DNA from: Pseudobacteriovorax sp.
GTDB taxonomy: Bacteria > Bdellovibrionota_B > Oligoflexia > Oligoflexales > Oligoflexaceae
Reading direction: 5' to 3'
Assembly: GCA_050293845.1 (NCBI GenBank)
Contig: JBNKNM010000196.1
Span: forward strand, 1 to 10,732
Length of the DNA: 10,732 bases
The notes below the pieces were generated by a model, which saw only the letters and a list, made by a program, of their open reading frames with translations, was not told the origin of the DNA and did not search any database. The position numbers and the translations under genes were made by a program. This document shows, piece after piece, positions 1,561 to 10,088 of this stretch (positions are counted from its first letter, which is position 1; the number at the start of each line of letters is the position of its first letter).

Positions 1561-2727
1561 CTAAAAATCCGCTACATTGACTGCAAAGTTTATGTGAGTT
1601 CTCCGTTCTACCACGCGAATATTATTAACTCCAACATCTTCTACACTGGAAGCTAGGTTTAAACCTATAATACCAAGGTTTATCCCTGTACCATACGATA
1701 TTCCTGCGACATTATAACCAACTCTAAATGCTGTAATGGACTCGGCTCCATATCGAGAGCCCCAAGTCCATTCCAAACTGGACTTTAATTTTTTATGTAA
1801 AGAGCTTCCTGTTTGGGTTAGGCTGTCACCTTCAAGGGTCAGGTGTAGGGCTCCCCAAGACCTGAAACTGGGATTTAAGGAGAAGCTTAACGTGGCATCT
1901 TCCTCGACGAGGAGATCCTCTTGTGCCTCGTCAGTATTACGATATTTGGTATCACCTGCATTGCGAAAAACAAGACCTAGGCTTGGTCGCCAGTGGGGAG
2001 CTAGAACCCATACAGCCCCTATATTTAGAGGGGCTCCCACATACTCTTGACGGTTATCTTTAAACTGACTTTTTCGAGTTTCGGGAGTGCTAAGGTCGGT
2101 GAACGCAAATGTTCCGGCAACAACATCCCGCTGGTAAAAGCCAGCATGCATGCCAAAATAGAAGCGTTGGCTCGGATCTTTAAAGCTGAATCCGAGACTT
2201 GGTCCTTTCACCGTTCGCGAAATTACGGAAACCTCAGTGCTGTTAGAGTCCTCAGCCGCTGCAGCTACTTGAGTGTCATAAACATACGCAATCATTGTTC
2301 TCCAGAAAACAATATTAGGTACGATGGAAACCCTTCCATACTGGCGCTTGCCTTGTTGGGTGCGTAAAATTTGGTTAACAATCGCCTCATTATTGAGGTC
2401 TTCAACTTTGCTCAAGTCGCGCTTTAGTTTCATAGTGTCATTGTTTACAGCAACAGCAAAATAAGGAAAATGGAGTTGGTTGATGATCGGTCGCTTACTA
2501 CTAACCTCAATGCCTCCGATGGCGGCAGGGTTGTAATAAGCAGCATCCATGCCATTTGCTGTCGTAGCTATAGCTCCACTCAAGCTGGCTGCTCGGGCTG
2601 ATGGCCAAAGAGATTCGTCAAAAACTGCATTCTCAATGGGACTTTTTTTTACCTGACAGAAAGAGAACTTAGCCCCAATAGTTAGGGCAAATATACTAGT
2701 CATTTTAATATGGTTGACTAAGCTCAT
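1561..2727 (-). CDS. Putative outer-membrane beta-barrel protein (TraF-like/PorV/FadL-like N-terminal plug motif)
   Basis: 388 aa with an N-terminal signal-like segment. SARAASLSGA...AAYYNPAAIG matches the R-A-x-x-M/L-G-G-A...Y/W-NPA-x-L motif of FadL/PorV/TraF-like barrels. Many amphipathic alternating strands (GPSLGFSF, FYFGMHAGF, SLGLVFRN, AFRVGYN, ISYGTGINLG); ends in INFAVNVADF with a terminal Phe. SD-like AGGAGAAGG upstream. Confidence 0.72.
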   Translation of the reverse strand: MSLVNHIKMTSIFALTIGAKFSFCQVKKSPIENAVFDESLWPSARAASLSGAIATTANGMDAAYYNPAAIGGIEVSSKRPIINQLHFPYFAVAVNNDTMKLKRDLSKVEDLNNEAIVNQILRTQQGKRQYGRVSIVPNIVFWRTMIAYVYDTQVAAAAEDSNSTEVSVISRTVKGPSLGFSFKDPSQRFYFGMHAGFYQRDVVAGTFAFTDLSTPETRKSQFKDNRQEYVGAPLNIGAVWVLAPHWRPSLGLVFRNAGDTKYRNTDEAQEDLLVEEDATLSFSLNPSFRSWGALHLTLEGDSLTQTGSSLHKKLKSSLEWTWGSRYGAESITAFRVGYNVAGISYGTGINLGIIGLNLASSVEDVGVNNIRVVERRTHINFAVNVADF

Positions 2728-2756
2728 TTAACACCTTCTCCTGCCAGCGCGTTCAC

Positions 2757-2784
2757 CTATCGGCACATCCTGATATAATCTTAA
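2757..2784 (-). promoter_or_regulatory. Putative sigma28 (FliA)-type promoter for the beta-barrel-ccmABC genes
   Basis: Minus strand reads TTAAG-attatatcaggatgt(15 nt)-GCCGATAG, inside the 60-bp gap 2728-2787 and 29 nt before the ATG at 2727. The -10 box matches the sigma28 consensus GCCGATAA at 7 of 8 positions. Confidence 0.68.
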
Positions 2785-2787
2785 GGT

Positions 2788-3750
2788 CTATTTTTCATTC
2801 GGTTTTTTGCGTGGCCTGAAGACAGATGAGCAGGTCATATGAAGATAGATCGCATCAAATTCATCAGTATTATAACATTCTATGGCACCGGAATTTTTAT
2901 CCCTTGGAGCGTCAGAATACTTATAGCGGCATTTTCCATTTAATTTCAAAGGAGTCCCACTGGCGGTAAACCTGGCAGCATTCATTTCGTAAGCTTCCCA
3001 TGGAGGGATGATGAATTCGTACTCTTTTTTTTTGGCTTCTTTATATTTACCGGATAGTTTTAGCGATAATAGCTTGTGCTTCCTTTTAATATCTTCTTGG
3101 GTAATGGTGGGCATACCTGACTCTCCCGAGCTAAGGTTCTCTGTCGATGATTTCCCATCCTTTGATTGCGTCATAATTCTCACATATAAGTTAGGCGTTT
3201 TTTTGTGGGGCTTAACCAAGGAATCGTTTTTGGGGAACATGACATACCATTTATCTCCAGTAAAAAGTTCCAATTCTACCTTACGACCAGCAGTACTCTC
3301 GCTTGCTTTGCAAGCGTAAATTCCGATGTTTTGATTCATTCCTGCATCAAGCTCCCCTAAGGGAACTACATTCGCCAATCGATAGGGAGTGTTCCAACTC
3401 ACAGCGGTACCATTATCCTGGGGGCCGGCACTAACCCGCCAACTTAGTTTTCCCGATGCATCGATATCTTTTAGCTCGAATGCAATACTAGTGCTTTTGC
3501 ATATTCTATGATCGGGTTTCTCGGGATCGGTAGTGATAGTCAGGCATTGATCCTGCGGAGGGTTGACTTGGATAAATCCTTTGGTTCGCAAGTGGTTCGC
3601 AGAAAATTTAACTTTACTTGAGCGCTTGATGCGAACTGTATGACCTACAGGAGGTGAAAACATAGGCTTGAGAATTTTCAACCGCTCCTGTTGGGTTGCC
3701 GATTGGTTAAATAGAGAAGCTATGATGAACGAATTGAAAAGCACACTCAC
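2788..3750 (-). CDS. Hypothetical protein, probably exported, six cysteines
   Basis: 320-aa open frame. Its GTG start overlaps the upstream stop (GTGA at 3747-3750). Short hydrophobic N-terminus, Lys-rich, beta-rich composition, 6 Cys, no CXXCH. No family recognised. Confidence 0.8.
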   Translation of the reverse strand: MSVLFNSFIIASLFNQSATQQERLKILKPMFSPPVGHTVRIKRSSKVKFSANHLRTKGFIQVNPPQDQCLTITTDPEKPDHRICKSTSIAFELKDIDASGKLSWRVSAGPQDNGTAVSWNTPYRLANVVPLGELDAGMNQNIGIYACKASESTAGRKVELELFTGDKWYVMFPKNDSLVKPHKKTPNLYVRIMTQSKDGKSSTENLSSGESGMPTITQEDIKRKHKLLSLKLSGKYKEAKKKEYEFIIPPWEAYEMNAARFTASGTPLKLNGKCRYKYSDAPRDKNSGAIECYNTDEFDAIYLHMTCSSVFRPRKKPNEK

Positions 3751-4673
3751 TGGGTAAATCTCATCTCGTAGATATCAGTACTCATATTATGGGTATATAA
3801 GATTGAGGAACTCTTGGGTGACCATAGGGGGAATCTCTCATCTGCACCTGGGGTCCGGGTAAGGTCTTTCAGGGAGCCATCCAAAGAAATGATAGAAATA
3901 TCGTGACTTACAATTTTTTTACCAATAAACTTGGCCTTGGCGAATAAAATTAGTTTGCCATGAGGATGCCAACTGGGATCTGTACCACGTGCCAGCAGCT
4001 GTGGTGATTCGCCATCTTTTGCCAGGTAGATGCGTTCGTGCTTGGTCGCCCATACAATGCTTCTTCCATCTGGTGAAATTTTATAGGAATAGACCGATTT
4101 TTCTGCGCTCATGGGACGCATAGAAATACCATTATTACTAACCCAAAAAACGCGATCTCCCGCGACAAGCCAGTAACCTAGCTTAGTTTTCAGAGAACGC
4201 TTCCAAGTTCCCATTCGCTCCGTAGGATATTCTAATTTGTGGGACTTTATGCCGTCTTTGGAGAGTATATAAAAGCGGTAATCACGGGGGTCCAAGCTAA
4301 TGGAACTGGTTAAACCCTCGTATTTTTCAAGGCTTACGCTATTTTTAAGGTAGGTATCATAGGCTTTTAGTTCTGATATAGCTCCATCCTTATTGCTGTA
4401 TACCTCCCTATAAAATAAACGAGCCCCATCGGGAGCCCAAAAAAAAGCATGGCCTACATGATATGAGGAGATACGGTAACTGTCTCCCGTTTTTAAATTG
4501 GCGATGAACAGCCCTTTTCCCTGACTATTTGTATAGGCCAATAATTTATTTAGACGATTAATTTTGGGAAAAAATATATGTCCTTCTATCCTGAGATATG
4601 GCGTGGAAACTGGTGTCCTTCCCACGCCATAGCAAGGTAGGGTCAGTAATATAAGAATGAGCATTTTAACCAT
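3747..4673 (-). CDS. Exported TolB-like (PD40 repeat) beta-propeller protein
   Basis: 308 aa with signal peptide MVKMLILILLTLPCYG. Repeated PD40-type blades: FFWAPDGARLFY, ISLDPRDYRFYI, ISPDGRSIVW, PSWHPHGKLILF, PLWSPKSSSILY. Too short to contain the TolB N-terminal alpha/beta domain and no pal neighbour, so not called tolB. SD-like AAGGGAGAG upstream. Confidence 0.82.
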   Translation of the reverse strand: MVKMLILILLTLPCYGVGRTPVSTPYLRIEGHIFFPKINRLNKLLAYTNSQGKGLFIANLKTGDSYRISSYHVGHAFFWAPDGARLFYREVYSNKDGAISELKAYDTYLKNSVSLEKYEGLTSSISLDPRDYRFYILSKDGIKSHKLEYPTERMGTWKRSLKTKLGYWLVAGDRVFWVSNNGISMRPMSAEKSVYSYKISPDGRSIVWATKHERIYLAKDGESPQLLARGTDPSWHPHGKLILFAKAKFIGKKIVSHDISIISLDGSLKDLTRTPGADERFPLWSPKSSSILYTHNMSTDIYEMRFTQ

Positions 4674-5030
4674 ATGGCTCTCCCTTGGTTATGAGCATAT
4701 CACAGCCTTCCTCTTACAATTTTTCCTACTTATGTATTACAGTGATAACTTACTAGAATAAAAACCTGGGAATCTGAAGAATTCTTCGTTTGCTGCGTTA
4801 TGCCAACCTTCCGAAACTCTCACCTACTTTGCTATGCTGCGGTTTAGAAAGCGCGTCATGCATCCGAAGCTTTTTCGAATTCCTTAAAATTATTAACTAA
4901 TTTTCAATTGTTTCGATCCGGGAAATACGAATCGAATTTTCTAGGCTCAGGATTCCTGTTATGTCAGGCGGGAAAGGTATATTCTCATGTGTCGTCGATG
5001 ATGTTAAAATTTCGAAAAGGTAAGTTTTAC

Positions 5031-5058
5031 TTTAGCTTACCATCTGAATTACCGATAA
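5031..5058 (+). promoter_or_regulatory. Putative sigma28 (FliA)-type promoter for the gltF-like gene
   Basis: TTTAG-cttaccatctgaatt(15 nt)-ACCGATAA, 26 nt before the ATG at 5085. Same spacing as the motif at 2757-2784. Followed by SD-like AGAGGG at 5075-5080. Confidence 0.58.
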
Positions 5059-5084
5059 GATAGCGGATTTGCAAAGAGGGTATC

Positions 5085-5456
5085 ATGAATCTTATTCTAT
5101 TTCTTATTTTAACATTTTATATGAGTAGCACTTTACTGGCTATACCGACGAAATTGCCGGTGTTCAATAGCAGCAAGACGCAAAGCCTTGATGCTAGAAT
5201 TTTACTAGCAAAAGGTAAGAAAAAGGATCGCAAAGGTAAAAAACGCTACCTTCAGGGTGAAGCTAGAAGTTCTTCAAGTAAGACATCCATAGATTTTGAT
5301 GCAGCCTCCATTGATGGCGAGCGTCGTACCCCTGTAGGAGTGCAAGTTGGTGGTACCAAGCAGGATAATGGTTACGATTTGATTAATTTAAGGCTTCGTT
5401 GGCATCCGGAAATGATTAAGTCGACATCAAATCTAGAGACCGGTAAAAGTCAATAG
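5085..5456 (+). CDS. gltF: Exported small protein, GltF/CglF (adventurous gliding motility) family-like
   Basis: 123 aa: signal peptide ending LLA, Lys-rich linker, then KTSIDFDAASIDGERRTPVG...K...YDLINLRLRWHPEMIKSTSNL. This follows the GltF/CglF pattern KT-x-IDF-x4-I-x-G-[DE]-x3-P-x-G...LI-x-x-R-x-x-[FW]-x6-S-x3-L as I recall it from myxobacterial proteins; recognised by eye, not by search. Confidence 0.66.
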   Translation: MNLILFLILTFYMSSTLLAIPTKLPVFNSSKTQSLDARILLAKGKKKDRKGKKRYLQGEARSSSSKTSIDFDAASIDGERRTPVGVQVGGTKQDNGYDLINLRLRWHPEMIKSTSNLETGKSQ

Positions 5457-5466
5457 ATTAGTTCGT

Positions 5467-6006
5467 TTAAAGTGCAGTATGAAGCTCTAGAAATCGATCG
5501 AGTTCAATGATGTCTTTCTGCTGGACGGATAACTTTCTCCAGGTTAGCCATCCATAGCGATCACCTAGGTATATTGTTGGTAGGTCTGGCTGGTGAAAAT
5601 TGTTCATCAACTCAACATTGGCCAGTATATTATAGCCCTTTATCTGGTATGCTTTTACAAATCCTGCGGCGTCTGCCTCCGTATCATGGGCAAAAATATA
5701 AACAAAAGTAGTATGACGTTTTTCATATTTTTCTTGTAATTCTATAATATTACGAATAAGCACCTGGCAAGGGATACACCAGGATGCTAGGAAGATAGCA
5801 ACTGTTGCATAACCTCGTTGAGGTTTGAAAGTTAGTCGTTCTGTATCGCCAATTTTTTTTCCTGAGATTACAGGAAAATTATACCAAGAATGAACATATC
5901 TGCTTGTGATAGTATCAAGGATAGCATTAGTTTTTGGCGCTGGTTCGGCAGCTCTTCCGTTGTGAGCTGATAGTAGAAGGATGAAGTATAAAAACCATTT
6001 TCTCAC
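5467..6006 (-). CDS. Exported TlpA/ResA/CcmG-like thiol-disulfide oxidoreductase (thioredoxin fold)
   Basis: FLASWCIPCQ (WCxxC) active site and cis-Pro motif DLPTIYLGDRYG. The ORF track starts at TTG 6018, but GGAGGA (6011-6016, minus strand) sits just before the GTG at 6006, giving MRKWFLYFILLLSAHNGRA, a clean signal peptide. Confidence 0.85.
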   Translation of the reverse strand: MRKWFLYFILLLSAHNGRAAEPAPKTNAILDTITSRYVHSWYNFPVISGKKIGDTERLTFKPQRGYATVAIFLASWCIPCQVLIRNIIELQEKYEKRHTTFVYIFAHDTEADAAGFVKAYQIKGYNILANVELMNNFHQPDLPTIYLGDRYGWLTWRKLSVQQKDIIELDRFLELHTAL

Positions 6007-6058
6007 GAAATCCTCCAAATCTAAGTTAACTTCATTTTATCATAGGTAGTAGCAAGCA

Positions 6059-7297
6059 TTGGACGCCGTAGAAAATCAAATACAGAATATCAAGAAGCTT
6101 TGGGATTTTAATTGGGGTGCCATGGATGTCCTAATTGGGGGCAGGTCGTCAATTGATCTTGACAAATTACGCTTTAAAAACTGGCAAGATGCCACAGAGT
6201 TCATTAAATATTACGGCTTTGATCCAGAATCAGCTGTTGATTCCAGAAAAATTCATGCTGTTATTGTGGAATCGTGGAACTTTATTGAAAGGTATCTTAT
6301 TCCCAAGGAATGGGAAAAAGGTTTAAAACCACCGGAAGATCTGCTGCGTTATCAGGATGTACGAGATATTATACTGTCTGCTTCTGACGTGCGTCCCGAA
6401 AAAGCCATTAAACAGGCTTGGGCTTGCTCTGTTTTGCGAGTGATGCATACCATAGCTCATATTGATGGTGTGCAACGCTATGCTGATTTCCCCATAGCAC
6501 GCGACCAGATTATGCAGCGATTTCAGAAGTTTATATTTCGTGACGAGGTGGGGCAGCTCCGATTTGGCAAAAACAACCTTTCTATAGGCTTATCCCGTAT
6601 CGAGTGGAAGTATCAAAAGCCTCGCGAGTCGATAATTTTAAAGCTACTACATAAGAAAGCTAATGTAACAGAAACCATCTATGATCTGATTGGAATGCGT
6701 ATTGTTACTCGAAATTTGTGTGATGTTTTAGTTGTTGTAAAGTTTTTAAGAGACTTCCATATGGTCACCTTTGCCAATTGCAATCCATCTCGGGCGCGAA
6801 ACTCTCTCATGGACGTGGAATCATTTCGTCATAATGTAGAGACGCTCAAGGTGATGTTGGACAACCAAAAAATTTCTCCATCAGAATTTTCGTCATTGCT
6901 GCAAAGTGTGACTCGTCACCTTGAAAAAAATACAGCACGCATCAATCCTCACTCGGGTCATAACTATAGGTCCATTCAGCTAACTTGTAGGCAGCTCATC
7001 CGTATGCCGTCTCGTTCTAGTATTTGGCAAAAAAAGCTTGTTGATTTTATAGAAAAGCATGAGATTAAAGGAGATCATATTAGCATATTGCAAGACATAG
7101 CAAGGTTGTTAAAGCTGGATAACGAAAAATCCCGAAGGCATCTTGGTTTTTTTCCTTTTGAAATTCAAGTTATGGACGAAGAAACATTTCAGAAAAATAT
7201 GCTCGGTGATGCAAATCATGGACGTTATAAACAGTCACAAATCAAATCTGCCAGGCGCCGTGTACTTGCCAAAGTGTTGACAAATAAGTTTTATTAG
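6059..7297 (+). CDS. TIGR04552/TIGR04562-like protein with a divergent RelA/SpoT synthetase (nucleotidyltransferase-fold) domain
   Basis: 412 aa, TTG start (start uncertain). Ordered RSH-synthetase-like motifs: KPRESIILKLLHK, IYDLIGMRIVT, NPHSGHNYRSIQLT, FPFEIQV, ANHGRYK. No HD hydrolase, TGS or ACT domain visible. Family label is from memory of ~400-aa myxobacterial/bdellovibrio proteins. Confidence 0.78.
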   Translation: MDAVENQIQNIKKLWDFNWGAMDVLIGGRSSIDLDKLRFKNWQDATEFIKYYGFDPESAVDSRKIHAVIVESWNFIERYLIPKEWEKGLKPPEDLLRYQDVRDIILSASDVRPEKAIKQAWACSVLRVMHTIAHIDGVQRYADFPIARDQIMQRFQKFIFRDEVGQLRFGKNNLSIGLSRIEWKYQKPRESIILKLLHKKANVTETIYDLIGMRIVTRNLCDVLVVVKFLRDFHMVTFANCNPSRARNSLMDVESFRHNVETLKVMLDNQKISPSEFSSLLQSVTRHLEKNTARINPHSGHNYRSIQLTCRQLIRMPSRSSIWQKKLVDFIEKHEIKGDHISILQDIARLLKLDNEKSRRHLGFFPFEIQVMDEETFQKNMLGDANHGRYKQSQIKSARRRVLAKVLTNKFY

Positions 7298-7329
7298 GTA
7301 TAACTTCCAGTTTATTATGTGGAGTTTAT

Positions 7330-8073
7330 ATGGCGATTCTATGGCAAAAATCTATAGATGACACTATGTATCAGGTCCGAAATGCTGGAAAAACGATGCG
7401 TTTGTACACTAATGGAATTCTACACACAGAGTACAATCCGAACCATATACTCACTGGCAGCGTTTGGGATCTTCTTTTGCTGGGATCATTTCTGGTACCT
7501 ATAGGTCATTTGAAAAGAGTTTTGGTGTTAGGAGTCGGTGGTGGTGCAGTACTAAATCAAATTCATTATTTTTTTCCTAAAGCTACTATTACTGGTGTTG
7601 AACTCAACCCCACACATCTGAGAGTAGCCAAGGATTTTTTTGCATTAAATACTATGAATCATGAACTCATTGAAGCGGATGCTATCGACTGGGTTAACAC
7701 AAATCAAAATAGAACCTACGACCTAATTATTGAAGATCTATTTTGTGAAACGGACGGTGAACCCGAGCGTGTTAAAGAAGCTAATAAATCTTGGGTTAGT
7801 AAGCTTGATGGGATGCTCAGTCCCTCAGGGGTTATGGTTGTTAATTTTATTGATCGAGATAGTTTATTAAGAAGCTCAACCGTATTTCAAGAAACTGGAA
7901 AATACGCGTCAGGGCTTCGGTTTACCACCAAGAATTGTTTCAATATTGTTGCTGTTTACAGTCGCAAATCCGTATTGAGTAGCGAGCTTCTACAGAGGTT
8001 ACGTGAATACCCCTTATTGGATAGTCGCAAGAAAGCATGCAAACTTCATTATAATGTTCGAAAGCTCTTCTAG
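7330..8073 (+). CDS. Spermidine-synthase-like class I SAM-dependent transferase
   Basis: 247 aa. Motif I VLVLGVGGGA, acidic motif II ITGVELNP, EADAIDWV, YDLIIEDLF and LSPSGVMVVN; N-terminal RLYTNGILHT beta region as in SpeE-like proteins. SD GGAG at 7321-7324. Confidence 0.82.
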   Translation: MAILWQKSIDDTMYQVRNAGKTMRLYTNGILHTEYNPNHILTGSVWDLLLLGSFLVPIGHLKRVLVLGVGGGAVLNQIHYFFPKATITGVELNPTHLRVAKDFFALNTMNHELIEADAIDWVNTNQNRTYDLIIEDLFCETDGEPERVKEANKSWVSKLDGMLSPSGVMVVNFIDRDSLLRSSTVFQETGKYASGLRFTTKNCFNIVAVYSRKSVLSSELLQRLREYPLLDSRKKACKLHYNVRKLF

Positions 8074-10088
8074 CCGAGATACTGAAGAAAGATTAAAGAA
8101 CGATCATCTTCGAGGTTTTCTGATATCTGTATAGAACTTAGAATGCCTGTAAGATAGTCAAGATCTACTTTGGTTTTTTTATCTTGCTCCAGGGTGCGTA
8201 TTAGCTTTCGCAGGCTACGGGAGCCTTCCAGGTAACCATCTGTAACAGTAAAAAGGATTTGACTTGTTTGCATAGTGATGGTTTTCTCTTCCATTACGAT
8301 CTCATCCCGGAGACCTAAGGGAGTGCCCCTAAGCATGGAGAACTCAGTTTTTTGAGGAGAGTGGAGAAACCAACCGGGGCTACCAGCATTGATTAGTTTA
8401 CAAGTCCCATCCTTGAATATGGTTGCTGTCGCCACCGTACAGGTAATGTGATAACTATACAAATCGATAAGTCGGGCATTGATTTTTTCCAGGGCTGCTA
8501 CAAGGCTAATATTCTCAGTTTCATAATCTTTAAGCAGGCTGATGATGCTTGCCACCGTAATGGCAGCCGATGGTCCTTTCCCCATCACATCTCCCATGAT
8601 AAAACGGGTTTCATCGCGGGATACCCGCCAAATATAGAACCAATCTCCAGCCATCTTCAAATGGGGAACATACAGCAGATGGTAACGGAAGTGAGATAAA
8701 GTTCCCGACATATTTTTGGGCAGTAGCAGGTTTTGCACAGCTTTTCCGAGGCTTAAGTAACCGTCTAGTTTAGCTAATTCGGCAGATTCCTCAAGGCGTC
8801 GTGATTTTTCTTCGTAATAGTTTCTCTCTATGGAAACTAACTTTATTTCCTCCTGCAATCTATTATGAGTAAAGTATAGGAATCCGGTACTGCAGAATCC
8901 CAAGCATGGTGTGAGCCAAGGAATTTCGATGGACATATAGGAAAACAAATAGATGGCTAGAAAAATATAGGAAGAAATGACAAGAGATACACCAATCCAA
9001 AATGCCGAAACAGAAGCATGAATTCCTAACAAGGTTCCAATAATAGCCAAAATGAGAATGGTAAACGGTGAACCATCAATAGAGTTGATCCACTGGGATT
9101 CTAAAATACTTGAAATCATGGAGGCAATAATCATGCCTCCTGGTATTTCACCAAAGGGGCTGACTTCATGGAAATCGGTATGACCAGAAGCGAATGATAG
9201 TAGTATCAGAACAATATCCCCTTGGTTGACTGTAGTTTCGTTTTCCCCAGTTCTAGCCCGACGAATCAAAGGATGTAGTGGTGATGTCATTTTATATAAG
9301 TGTTGGGGTGGACGATAATTTATGGTCACACGACCTTTTTTATTAATAGGTACCTTATGGTTGTTGATATGCAGCTCTTTACGATCTATGTAGACACTAT
9401 CTGCAGTAAAAATACTAAGATGAGGAATGATGATATCAGAGCTAATCCTATAAAAGGGGGAAACAGTTCCATCGCTATTGGAGATAATGTGACCTTGGCC
9501 ATGGAACACATCTTCGAGCTGTTGTGTGGGGCCATAAATATGGGCATCATATTGTCTATCAAGAATTAACTCCAGGTCAAACACATCAATTTCGGGGTTC
9601 AAATAACTTTCAATACGGAAAAACTCTTTGTTTCTATCTAAAGCATGACGATATCTCATCGGTTTATTATTGAGGTAGACACCGGTATAAACATTGAGAT
9701 TCTCCTGTTTAAGGGATTTATACCACTTTTCACTATCCTCTTGATATTCTGATAATAACCCATCAATTAAGATGGCTTTTGGCTTACGTTCACTGATATT
9801 GATCAACATTTTAGTGAGGTCTTCGGGGCTAAGACGTGGCCCCCCTAGAAAGGCAAAGCTACTATCATCAAGGGCGAAAATTTTAAGTCTGGGAGAAAGA
9901 GGAGGAGTTTGTCCTAGAATATCCCGAGACTGAAATAAAAAAGGGTATATGATATTTGTTTTCAGGTATTGTTCTAGGGGGCTGAAGGGAATAGCTACAA
10001 TGGCAATAGTCAGTAGGCATGCAGCGCCATGGAAGGTGTACCAGGAGCGACCGCTTGCAAAAAAATCTTGGATGGCTCTTTCCGTCAT
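8070..10088 (-). CDS. Membrane sensor phosphatase: CHASE2 domain + TM helices + PP2C/SpoIIE (RsbU-like) domain
   Basis: 672 aa. N-terminal TM; CHASE2 hallmarks KIFALDDSS, KPKAILIDGLLSE, GRVTINYR, GDIVLI, SPFGEIPGGMIIASMISSIL; three to four TM helices; coiled coil ending LGKAVQNLLLP; PP2C motifs MAGDWF, MGDVMGKGPSAA, NAGSPG, GTPLG, TDGYLE, EDDRSLI with the metal-binding Asp residues intact. Confidence 0.88.
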   Translation of the reverse strand: MTERAIQDFFASGRSWYTFHGAACLLTIAIVAIPFSPLEQYLKTNIIYPFLFQSRDILGQTPPLSPRLKIFALDDSSFAFLGGPRLSPEDLTKMLINISERKPKAILIDGLLSEYQEDSEKWYKSLKQENLNVYTGVYLNNKPMRYRHALDRNKEFFRIESYLNPEIDVFDLELILDRQYDAHIYGPTQQLEDVFHGQGHIISNSDGTVSPFYRISSDIIIPHLSIFTADSVYIDRKELHINNHKVPINKKGRVTINYRPPQHLYKMTSPLHPLIRRARTGENETTVNQGDIVLILLSFASGHTDFHEVSPFGEIPGGMIIASMISSILESQWINSIDGSPFTILILAIIGTLLGIHASVSAFWIGVSLVISSYIFLAIYLFSYMSIEIPWLTPCLGFCSTGFLYFTHNRLQEEIKLVSIERNYYEEKSRRLEESAELAKLDGYLSLGKAVQNLLLPKNMSGTLSHFRYHLLYVPHLKMAGDWFYIWRVSRDETRFIMGDVMGKGPSAAITVASIISLLKDYETENISLVAALEKINARLIDLYSYHITCTVATATIFKDGTCKLINAGSPGWFLHSPQKTEFSMLRGTPLGLRDEIVMEEKTITMQTSQILFTVTDGYLEGSRSLRKLIRTLEQDKKTKVDLDYLTGILSSIQISENLEDDRSLIFLQYLG

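Follow-up and report, generated by a model that had tools for sequence, protein, structure and literature searches.

RelA/SpoT homologue (RSH) enzymes were long thought to make (p)ppGpp only, the exceptions being Tas1 and FaRel, which synthesize (pp)pApp, and FaRel2 and CapRel, which pyrophosphorylate tRNA, and each exception has opened a new piece of bacterial physiology. Here we describe a gene for a 412-residue protein of Pseudobacteriovorax sp. (contig JBNKNM010000196.1), located in a stretch of 10,732 bases with about 41% G+C, referred to as the window. Judged from its sequence, the protein appears to be a strongly conserved, distant relative of the ppGpp-making RSH enzymes that has kept the catalytic core, while residues on the acceptor side differ. 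We tentatively propose that it is an active pyrophosphokinase with non-canonical small-nucleotide acceptor specificity or regulation, an unproven reading that we hold at somewhat less than even confidence. The parts of the gene are as follows:

6059..7297, plus strand: whole open reading frame (ORF), 412 amino acids, TTG start, a TIGR04562/TIGR04552 protein with an RSH-synthetase-like core (NCBIfam).
6059..6451, plus strand: all-helical, family-specific N-terminal domain, residues 1-131 (secondary structure; predicted local distance difference test score, pLDDT, 88-96 over residues 40-130).
6452..7297, plus strand: RSH-synthetase-like catalytic core, residues 132-412 (VIA-align and a scan of 48,161 chains).
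6608..6655, plus strand: donor-phosphate motif K184..K187-x-R189-x-S191-x-x-x-K195-L-L-H198-K199 (Pfam, YwaC alignment, conservation).
6683..6700, plus strand: D209-L-I-G212-M-R214, canonical in form, with the predicted Mg2+-binding Asp and the predicted second adenine-stacking Arg (alignment with RelSeq, Mycobacterium tuberculosis Rel and YwaC).
6785..6802, plus strand: P243-S-R245-A-R247-N248, in the place that P-G-R-F-K-D (the RxKD motif) takes in the organism's own Rel (matched by eye).
6806..6934, plus strand: insert 1, residues 250-292, about 43 amino acids, two helices (253-268 and 274-284 in the model).
6944..6991, plus strand: rebuilt acceptor (G-) loop and strand, N296-P-H298-S...Y303-R-S-I-Q307-L-T309-x-R311 (conservation, hhalign).
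7013..7135, plus strand: insert 2, residues 319-359, about 41 amino acids, helical hairpin (helices 319-333 and 339-357 in the model).
7148..7177, plus strand: catalytic Glu strand, F364-F-P-F-E368-I-Q370-V-M-D373 (hhalign, HMMER, conservation).
7217..7261, plus strand: H387-x-x-Y390-K391..Q394....R399-x-R401, the HxxYK His and a conserved basic C-terminal helix (alignment, invariance).

The protein belongs to a family that is catalogued without a characterised function. It matches two NCBIfam models end to end, TIGR04562 with 324.9 bits (cutoff 140, profile positions 1-355 of 356) and TIGR04552 with 314.3 bits (cutoff 125, positions 3-351 of 352), and both models carry only the label 'TIGR04552 family protein', in line with the statement in the original prediction that no function had been assigned to a TIGR04552-like family. 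The family had thus already been recognised, and the Pfam domain RelA_SpoT (PF04607) is precomputed on most close homologues. In the window protein itself the PF04607 match is marginal and covers half a domain (28.2 bits with the threshold at 27; 4-53 of the 113 profile positions, residues 187-237); in another family member it reaches 42 bits over profile positions 3-111, and 7 of 12 longer members (442-506 amino acids) score at least 27 bits. Pfam finds no other domain in these 12 longer members and no fused forms of at least 722 amino acids were found, which is weak evidence that bears out the prediction of a stand-alone enzyme. HD, TGS and ACT domains gave no Pfam match at E-values up to 10 in the window protein, which lacks a signal peptide and ends 25 residues past the HxxYK motif. 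The TTG start is sound, because no alternative start codon lies between the preceding stop and the family-conserved W15-x-F17-x-W19. A protein identical to the 412-residue product exists in a public collection (P0002), and the nearest named relative, from Pseudobacteriovorax antillogorgiicola, is 69% identical. The family comprises 367 proteins at E-values up to 1e-3 in a word-indexed search, and 496 clusters at 50% identity in an exhaustive search, 151 of them at E-values up to 1e-30. An Rfam scan of the window gave no match.

The core (residues 132-412) is predicted to adopt an RSH-type nucleotidyltransferase fold. An AlphaFold2 model built from 35 homologues (mean pLDDT 82.9, pTM 0.71) was searched against the PDB with Foldseek, where the first ten rows were all small alarmone synthetases (SASs). 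On re-alignment with VIA-align, RSH-type chains filled the first 21 rows with Z scores from 9.4 to 7.5; 20 of these rows are titled as RSH enzymes, the remaining one being 3l9d, Streptococcus mutans smu.1046c. Pol lambda, the first chain of another type, follows with a Z score of 7.2. The best matches, both at Z 9.4, were Bacillus subtilis RelQ (5ded_E, rmsd 3.4, 155 residues aligned, model residues 132-392) and B. subtilis SAS2/YwaC (6fgk_A, rmsd 3.3, 151 residues aligned, 20% identity). RSH enzymes also took all of the top six rows (Z 9.4-8.0) when 48,161 representative chains were scanned independently of Foldseek, with just 4 chains at Z 8 or above for the whole model and Tas1 and CapRel further down at Z 5.8. 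An RSH synthetase fold had been set beforehand as a test of the original prediction, and both structure searches recovered it.

At the sequence level, PDB sequences searched with the window protein alone yielded chance matches only. With HMMER, a profile of the family found YwaC among PDB sequences at an E-value of 4.4e-4, and it aligns D209 with D264 of RelSeq, P-F-E368-I-Q with P321-I-E323-I-Q, and H387-x-x-Y-K with A-H-W-A-Y-K(K). A family alignment of 76 sequences comprises the window protein and 75 of 80 homologues encoded in related loci, down to 31% identity, with five truncated or over-long ORFs left out. When it was compared with the synthetase (SYNTH) regions of 30 long Rel proteins from this class, hhalign matched the N-terminal half (E 7.8e-4, probability 25%) and the part from the catalytic Glu to HxxYK (E 2.3e-5, probability 76%), and Y-R-S-I-Q-L-T-C is collinear with Y-Q-S-L-H-T-T-V at an E-value of 0.35, which alone is not significant. 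By these alignments, the motifs of the window protein are collinear with those of RSH synthetases, in the order that had been predicted, and the match is not due to chance, because identity at the motif residues stays at 97% or more over sequences that diverge to 31% identity. The positions first given for the motifs are all right (K187 at 6617, D209 at 6683, Y303 at 6965, E368 at 7160, H387 at 7217, and RARN as R245-N248).

Residue roles were taken from Staphylococcus aureus RelP (SaRelP), as given in the accessible text of PMC5794853. The donor motif is the counterpart of R-x-K-x-x-x-S-x-x-x-K-x-x-R, in which the first Arg position (residue 185) is variable and the last Arg has become an invariant His. 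Of the four phosphate ligands of SaRelP, K80, S84 and K88 are kept as K187, S191 and K195, and R91 is replaced by the invariant H198, followed by K199 (PMC5794853). R78, one of two Arg residues that stack on the adenine, corresponds to residue 185, a Tyr in the window protein, and the preceding K184 is 96% conserved; the other, R112, is kept as R214 (PMC5794853). Also kept are the ribose-contacting H190 (H387), the Mg2+ ligands D107 and E174 (D209 and E368) and the G-loop Tyr Y151 (Y303), according to the same source. The kept residues are all at least 97% identical over the 76 sequences, except Y303 at 93%, which is Phe in some others. The original prediction counted DLIGMR as an altered form of DxxAxR; this does not hold, as D-x-x-G-x-R is usual in B. 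subtilis YwaC and M. tuberculosis Rel, and Ala occurs only in RelSeq and the organism's own Rel. In the tRNA-modifying enzyme FaRel2, the Mg2+-binding D90 and the stacking Y128 are both reported as essential in the accessible part of bioRxiv 10.1101/2021.04.30.441581, so that this Asp and Tyr would mark activity whatever the acceptor. Such constraint down to 31% identity, which covers the two metal ligands, three phosphate ligands out of four, one stacking Arg, the His at the ribose and the acceptor Tyr, is what would be expected of an active pyrophosphokinase.

In contrast to this conserved catalytic site, the acceptor side is rebuilt, and the replacements are invariant within the family. Use of GDP or GTP by (p)ppGpp-making RSH enzymes probably requires the His of YxSxH and the Arg-Thr of EIQIRT. 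Neither feature is present: the His is replaced by an invariant Gln307, and EIQIRT has become E-x-Q-x-x-D, with the Arg lost and an invariant D373 in place of the Thr. N296-P-[H/Y/F]298 occupies the site of PKxNGY, with His or an aromatic residue in place of the Lys. N296, Q307, T309 and R311 are at least 97% conserved and H298 is conserved at 86%. Ahead of the loop, P243, R245 and N248 are likewise conserved at 97% or more and R247 at 95%; the pairing of this RARN stretch with RxKD should be regarded as inferred, since it was matched by eye and hhalign is not significant on so short a stretch. Insert 1 lies between the RxKD-like motif and the G-loop Tyr and is found family-wide, including distant members, with variable length. 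In RelP and RelQ the acceptor loop is a short beta3-beta4 connection (PMC5794853, accessible text), whereas in the model of the window protein it would form a subdomain of about 65 residues. Insert 2 is gapped in at least 15% of the aligned rows over residues 325-359 and is missing from the distant members shown, which makes it a lineage-specific feature of the Oligoflexia branch; this branch is about 50-70 amino acids longer than the branch of 335-400 amino acids found in metagenome-assembled genomes (MAGs) of Myxococcota and in Kiloniella. The two helical insertions that had been predicted are therefore there, at about 43 and 41 amino acids rather than the roughly 50 suggested for each, and one of them is confined to a lineage. 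As Q307, D373, N296, N248 and R311 are as invariant as the core, selection on a different pocket is a better explanation than decay, and the earlier observation that the catalytic Asp and Glu are kept while acceptor residues differ extends to the whole family.

The N-terminal domain contains the invariant residues S30, D33, Y52, G53, W121, C123, H130 and H134, and residues 8-140 modelled alone reach a pLDDT of 82. The original prediction of an N-terminal region without an HD motif agrees with the Pfam result, and its length of about 180 residues has to be reduced to about 131, the RelQ alignments beginning at residue 132. A remnant of an HD domain was considered and not supported, as no HD chain appeared in the top 50 of the 48,161-chain scan with residues 8-140, a result that is inconclusive alone. 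The best PDB match of the domain is RbcX at Z 7.3, too low a score to carry meaning for a helical bundle, and in an ESM Atlas feature search with residues 1-140 the top score, 0.81, lay within the noise. At the other end, the helix after HxxYK is basic and conserved (K391, Q394, R399, R401), and the tail of residues 385-412 has a pI of 11.6.

Of 131 genomes of the phylum, 111 contain one copy of TIGR04562, as do 72 of the 83 that are of high quality, and none of 14 control genomes has it; all 41 genomes sampled from the class encode a long Rel. Outside the class, members of the family are reported or found in Myxococcales, Bdellovibrio, Kiloniella and other lineages, and five of 15 distant loci scanned with NCBIfam all encode bona fide TIGR04562 members (E 1e-96 to 1e-109). 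No PADLOC defence model matched the protein. Since it is single-copy, accompanied by a long Rel, without a PADLOC match and without a conserved small partner gene, we regard it as a vertically inherited signalling or housekeeping enzyme beside a normal long Rel, and not as a toxin or defence gene. The organism's own genome encodes a separate long Rel of 778 amino acids (PF04607, 149.8 bits).

A third RSH-type gene in this genome encodes a SAS-like protein of 360 amino acids (PF04607, 86.7 bits; genome G000, contig C88, L002:907-1989, minus strand), in which the RxK, DxxGxR, YRSLH and EIQIRT motifs are canonical and the C-terminus is extended by about 160 amino acids. It scores 87 bits to NF053588, the YjbM-type GTP diphosphokinase model (cutoff 320), and 61.8 bits to the PADLOC candidate defence model PDC-S33, and it may be a defence- or toxin-type SAS.

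Published accounts touch the family at few points. An RSH census (Jimmy et al. 2020, PMC7229694) lists, in its accessible part, only Rel[HS] for three Bdellovibrio genomes, Rel and a small alarmone hydrolase (SAH) for several Myxococcales, and an extra 'Rel[S]' in Myxococcus xanthus, which may or may not be the TIGR04552 protein MXAN_4858. By this listing, the family appears to lie largely outside the published RSH classification, though Pfam touches it. For Bdellovibrio sp. NC01, it is reported that an indel of one base in the TIGR04552 gene rose to high frequency in one population out of six that were evolved (PMC9888234, accessible part), which indicates that the gene is dispensable there. 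MXAN_4858 carries a TIGR04552 domain, lies near the M. xanthus G1 cluster and has transposon sequencing (Tn-seq) fitness patterns that resemble those of glt genes, according to the accessible part of bioRxiv 10.64898/2026.08.28.747804, which also recounts, citing Pathak & Wall 2012, that an earlier insertion had no overt motility effect. TIGR04562 by name was not found in the literature searched.

If the enzyme is active as we propose, an NTP donor, most likely ATP, would be bound with its phosphates contacted by K187, S191, K195 and H198/K199 and its base and ribose by R214 and H387. Mg2+ would be held between D209 and E368, and a purine nucleotide that stacks on Y303 would receive the beta,gamma-pyrophosphate at its 3'-OH. 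Acceptor specificity or loop gating would be expected to be non-canonical, because the G-loop is split, Gln stands for His and x-Asp for Arg-Thr, and a 131-residue N-terminal domain is present; no (p)ppGpp synthetase characterised so far has such an acceptor side. A number of observations weigh against this proposal. Sequence similarity to RSH enzymes is weak, as the hhalign probability of 25% for the N-terminal half illustrates; the PF04607 match of the window protein lies at the threshold over half the profile and falls below the cutoff, at 25.4 bits, in a six-frame scan of the genome; and the best Foldseek E-value, 4.4e-3, is weak. Model confidence is lowest where the acceptor loop hinges (residues 241-250 and 291-300, with a pLDDT of about 55), and it is from superposition statistics, not from distances, that the motifs are predicted to converge on one pocket. 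Two donor-site Arg equivalents, those of SaRelP R78 and R91, are not kept, and since the first is variable and the second is His, the donor may not be ATP or its binding may be weak. The literature naming TIGR04552, TIGR04562 or MXAN_4858 holds no biochemical data on any member, and the retained catalytic residues are also compatible with ordinary (p)ppGpp synthesis, so that the new product or target of the original prediction stays a hypothesis.

Ordinary (p)ppGpp synthesis, by a SAS that makes (p)ppGpp from ATP and GDP or GTP and uses its N-terminal domain and inserts only for regulation, appears to us unlikely, yet it has more in its favour than the other alternatives. The nearest structures are the housekeeping enzymes RelQ, RelP and Rel, whose Z scores of 9.4-8.0 clearly exceed those of Tas1 and CapRel (Z 5.8). 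The protein retains the stacking Tyr, the Mg2+-binding Asp and Glu and a P-x-R-x-R-N resembling RxKD, and the gene is chromosomal, single-copy and non-mobile, as genes of housekeeping SASs are. Such an enzyme would, however, have to coexist with the long Rel already present in every sampled genome, and the family would have to have fixed Q307, D373, the loss of the IRT Arg, His298 or an aromatic residue for the PKxNGY Lys, and a 43-residue insert that splits the G-loop. Moreover, the accessible part of the census (PMC7229694) gives Bdellovibrio only Rel[HS], yet a TIGR04552 protein is annotated in a Bdellovibrio genome (PMC9888234, accessible part), so that the SYNTH similarity of the family should fall below that of the known ppGpp-making SAS subfamilies. 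The least probable of the readings considered is that the protein pyrophosphorylates RNA 3' ends, of tRNA or another RNA, as the toxic SASs FaRel2, PhRel2 and CapRel do, but under regulation and in a housekeeping role. This reading would fit the basic core (pI 10.06; family median 9.3) and the conserved Arg/Lys-rich C-terminal helix with K391, R399 and R401, the CCA end of tRNA is accepted by RSH enzymes through the same Asp and Tyr (10.1101/2021.04.30.441581, accessible part), and CapRel is among the structural matches (Z 5.8-6.2). Charge does not discriminate, however, because ordinary Rel SYNTH domains of the class are as basic (median pI 9.18), and the structures are nearer to nucleotide-using SASs. 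The gene also lacks an antitoxin-like conserved neighbour, the downstream gene being kept in 1 of 80 loci and the distant loci being heterogeneous, and no PADLOC model matches. Insertion and frameshift mutants are viable, the Bdellovibrio one at high frequency (accessible parts of the sources cited above), which says nothing for toxicity.

It is also rather improbable, slightly less so than RNA modification, that the protein is not a pyrophosphokinase at all. It would then use the RSH fold as a pseudoenzyme or as a regulator that binds nucleotides, or else catalyse another polymerase-beta-type reaction, for example nucleotidyl transfer. The loss of one adenine-stacking and one phosphate-binding Arg and the extra invariant acidic residue D373 on the catalytic strand would suit this idea, as would the weaker structural matches to Pol lambda, Pol mu, TdT, CdnE and OAS1 (Z 5.5-7.2). 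Pseudoenzymes usually lose their metal ligands, however, and D209 and E368 are invariant over the 76 sequences; RSH chains score about 2 Z units above all other nucleotidyltransferases; and D373, five residues past E368, should face the opposite side of the strand, as inferred from strand geometry. A broader and quite doubtful extension of our proposal, which we rate only a little above the idea of a non-pyrophosphokinase, is that the clade is an unclassified RSH lineage which makes another messenger or uses a non-canonical acceptor, that the N-terminal domain (with D33, H130 and H134) senses a signal or turns over the product, and that the signal tunes Glt-type gliding or envelope machinery in Myxococcota and Bdellovibrionota-type bacteria. 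Such tuning would explain the glt-like Tn-seq phenotype of MXAN_4858. The proximity of the family to a GltF-type gene in two phyla is thin and at most suggestive; distant members lack glt-like neighbours, the family also occurs in Kiloniella, and the pattern of a 320-residue envelope protein encoded nearby, described below, is discordant with that of the target. The preferred reading remains that of an active pyrophosphokinase with a non-canonical acceptor or regulation. What the data show is membership in the family, the fold, the motifs that are retained or altered and the phyletic distribution; catalysis, donor, acceptor and the role in the cell are proposed.

The surroundings of the gene were compared in 80 related loci, mostly of Oligoflexus and Oligoflexales, including 15 distant loci of other phyla with 31-36% identity. 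The flanking genes concerned are:

5085..5456, plus strand: small secreted CglF/GltF-like protein (NF033764, E 9.7e-7, 28.7 bits, cutoff 90).
5467..6018, minus strand: thioredoxin-like (ResA/CcmG-like) gene, divergent from the target (weak Pfam and NCBIfam matches).
7330-8073, plus strand: SpeE-like (spermidine-synthase-like) class I methyltransferase, 32 nucleotides downstream of the target (best PADLOC match mad2, 43.7 bits).
8070-10088, minus strand: 672-residue membrane sensor phosphatase with N-terminal CHASE2 and C-terminal PP2C/SpoIIE domains.

The thioredoxin/ResA-like gene is the commonest neighbour within the class and lies directly upstream in 58 of the 80 loci, and a small CglF/GltF-like ORF is found near the target in 51. 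In M. xanthus, CglF is the same protein as GltF (MXAN_4868, 89 amino acids) and is encoded in the G1 cluster MXAN_4870-4862 (PMC3169522 and PMC4488436, accessible parts). A second CglF/GltF-like ORF occurs elsewhere in the genome (G000 contig C94, L115:8866-9126, minus strand; NF033764, 33.8 bits, cutoff 90), directly downstream of a gene for a 388-residue TPR protein, in an order that recalls gltE-gltF of M. xanthus; the contig ends there. Between ccmCBA and the thioredoxin-like gene lies a conserved envelope trio (1561-4673, minus strand), which encodes a PorV/TraF-like outer-membrane barrel (388 amino acids), a protein of 320 amino acids and a PD40/TolB-like beta-propeller (308 amino acids). 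A PD40/TolB-like gene is found in 46 of the 80 loci, the 320-residue gene in 44, ccmA/ccmB in 24 and the outer-membrane barrel in 24, and the neighbours listed here are secreted or envelope proteins by their N-termini. The 320-residue protein matches no family in Pfam, NCBIfam or PADLOC. With this single protein as query, its gene turned up in 77 of the phylum's 131 genomes, absence meaning not found with that one query, and its pattern is discordant with that of the target: it is found in 0 of 33 genomes of one family (f19) against 31 of 33 for the target, and in 3 of 4 of one genus (g10) against 0 of 4. Three of its homologues each contain one in-frame TGA (G008:C2:36661-37539, G037:C322:3190-4164 and G005:C29:10965-11861), which could be due to a sequencing error, a pseudogene or recoding.

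None of the class-level neighbours (thioredoxin-like, CglF-like, PD40 and 320-residue genes) is shared by any of the 15 distant loci, whose neighbours are heterogeneous and include MotA/MotB once and MBL-fold hydrolases twice. As the distant loci share no neighbour and the 320-residue gene is discordant, the synteny is a lead at the level of the class and not a system. A functional module with the neighbours was accordingly rejected, the recurrence being confined to one class, and so was an operon with the SpeE-like methyltransferase, since the gene, though separated by a gap of 32 nucleotides, is kept in 1 of 80 loci, that of the closest relative (L004). The suggestion of an undescribed system is therefore not upheld, and we conclude that the target is a stand-alone, vertically inherited gene with no universal operon partner. 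A scan of positions 4600-8200 for promoter-like sites (9 against 10.8 expected) and terminator-like sites (4 against 2.7 expected) is uninformative, because the counts are near expectation. In 11 of the 80 loci, a CHASE2-PP2C/SpoIIE gene recurs in the vicinity of the target, with varying position and strand. Some distant loci are flanked by possible nucleotide-turnover genes, namely an MBL-fold hydrolase gene that overlaps the start of the target (L080:7235-7996, with a faint Apyc1-like match), a divergent MBL-fold gene (L076:7094-7840), a gene for an HD-domain protein two genes away (L072:6364-7044) and, in three related MAGs (L074-L076), a DJ-1/PfpI gene directly downstream of the target; these cases are too few for a conclusion.

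The interest of the family lies in that a whole clade, mostly uncounted in the RSH census, is under strict catalytic constraint with a different and equally constrained acceptor pocket. The activity should be easy to test, because a single soluble protein of 40-47 kDa is involved, and M. xanthus offers a genetic handle through the transposon phenotype resembling gliding mutants (10.64898/2026.08.28.747804, accessible part). Should the product be ppGpp only, the family would represent a new class of regulated SASs in predatory and social bacteria; should it not be ppGpp, a new RSH chemistry.

Compared with known systems, the closest structural matches are the Firmicutes enzymes RelQ (SAS1/YjbM) and RelP (SAS2/YwaC), with which the protein shares the Lys/Ser/Lys set, the Mg2+-binding Asp and Glu, the second stacking Arg, the ribose His and the G-loop Tyr, as well as the absence of HD, TGS and ACT domains. 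It differs from them in the extra 131-residue N-terminal helical domain, in a G-loop carrying a 43-residue helical insert, in the motifs YxSxQ and ExQxxD, in a variable residue at the R78 position and His at that of R91, and, in the Oligoflexia branch, in a second insert of 41 residues; sequence similarity is marginal, with a profile E-value of 4.4e-4 to YwaC. The SYNTH domains of long RSH enzymes are almost as close (Z 9.3-8.2 to the Rel proteins of S. aureus, Streptococcus equisimilis, B. subtilis and M. tuberculosis and to Escherichia coli RelA and SpoT), and a P-x-R-x-[KR]-[DN] motif precedes the G-loop in both. Unlike the long enzymes, the window protein contains no HD domain that Pfam finds and no TGS, ACT or ribosome-binding domains. 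Tas1, which makes (pp)pApp, has the same fold (6ox6_A, Z 5.8, 146 residues aligned, 19% identity), and so has CapRel, which acts on tRNA at its 3'-CCA terminus (7ztb, Z 5.8-6.2). These toxic enzymes, with FaRel2 and PhRel2, provide the precedent for an RSH enzyme in which the Asp and Tyr are kept and the acceptor is changed. In contrast to them, the gene described here has no immunity or antitoxin neighbour, secretion context or match to a defence model; nor does it show the bi- or tricistronic or fused-antitoxin layout of toxic SASs, its downstream gene being kept in 1 of 80 loci and its conserved upstream neighbour being divergent and encoding a secreted thioredoxin-like protein. Single-copy and vertically inherited, it stands nearer to the housekeeping enzymes.

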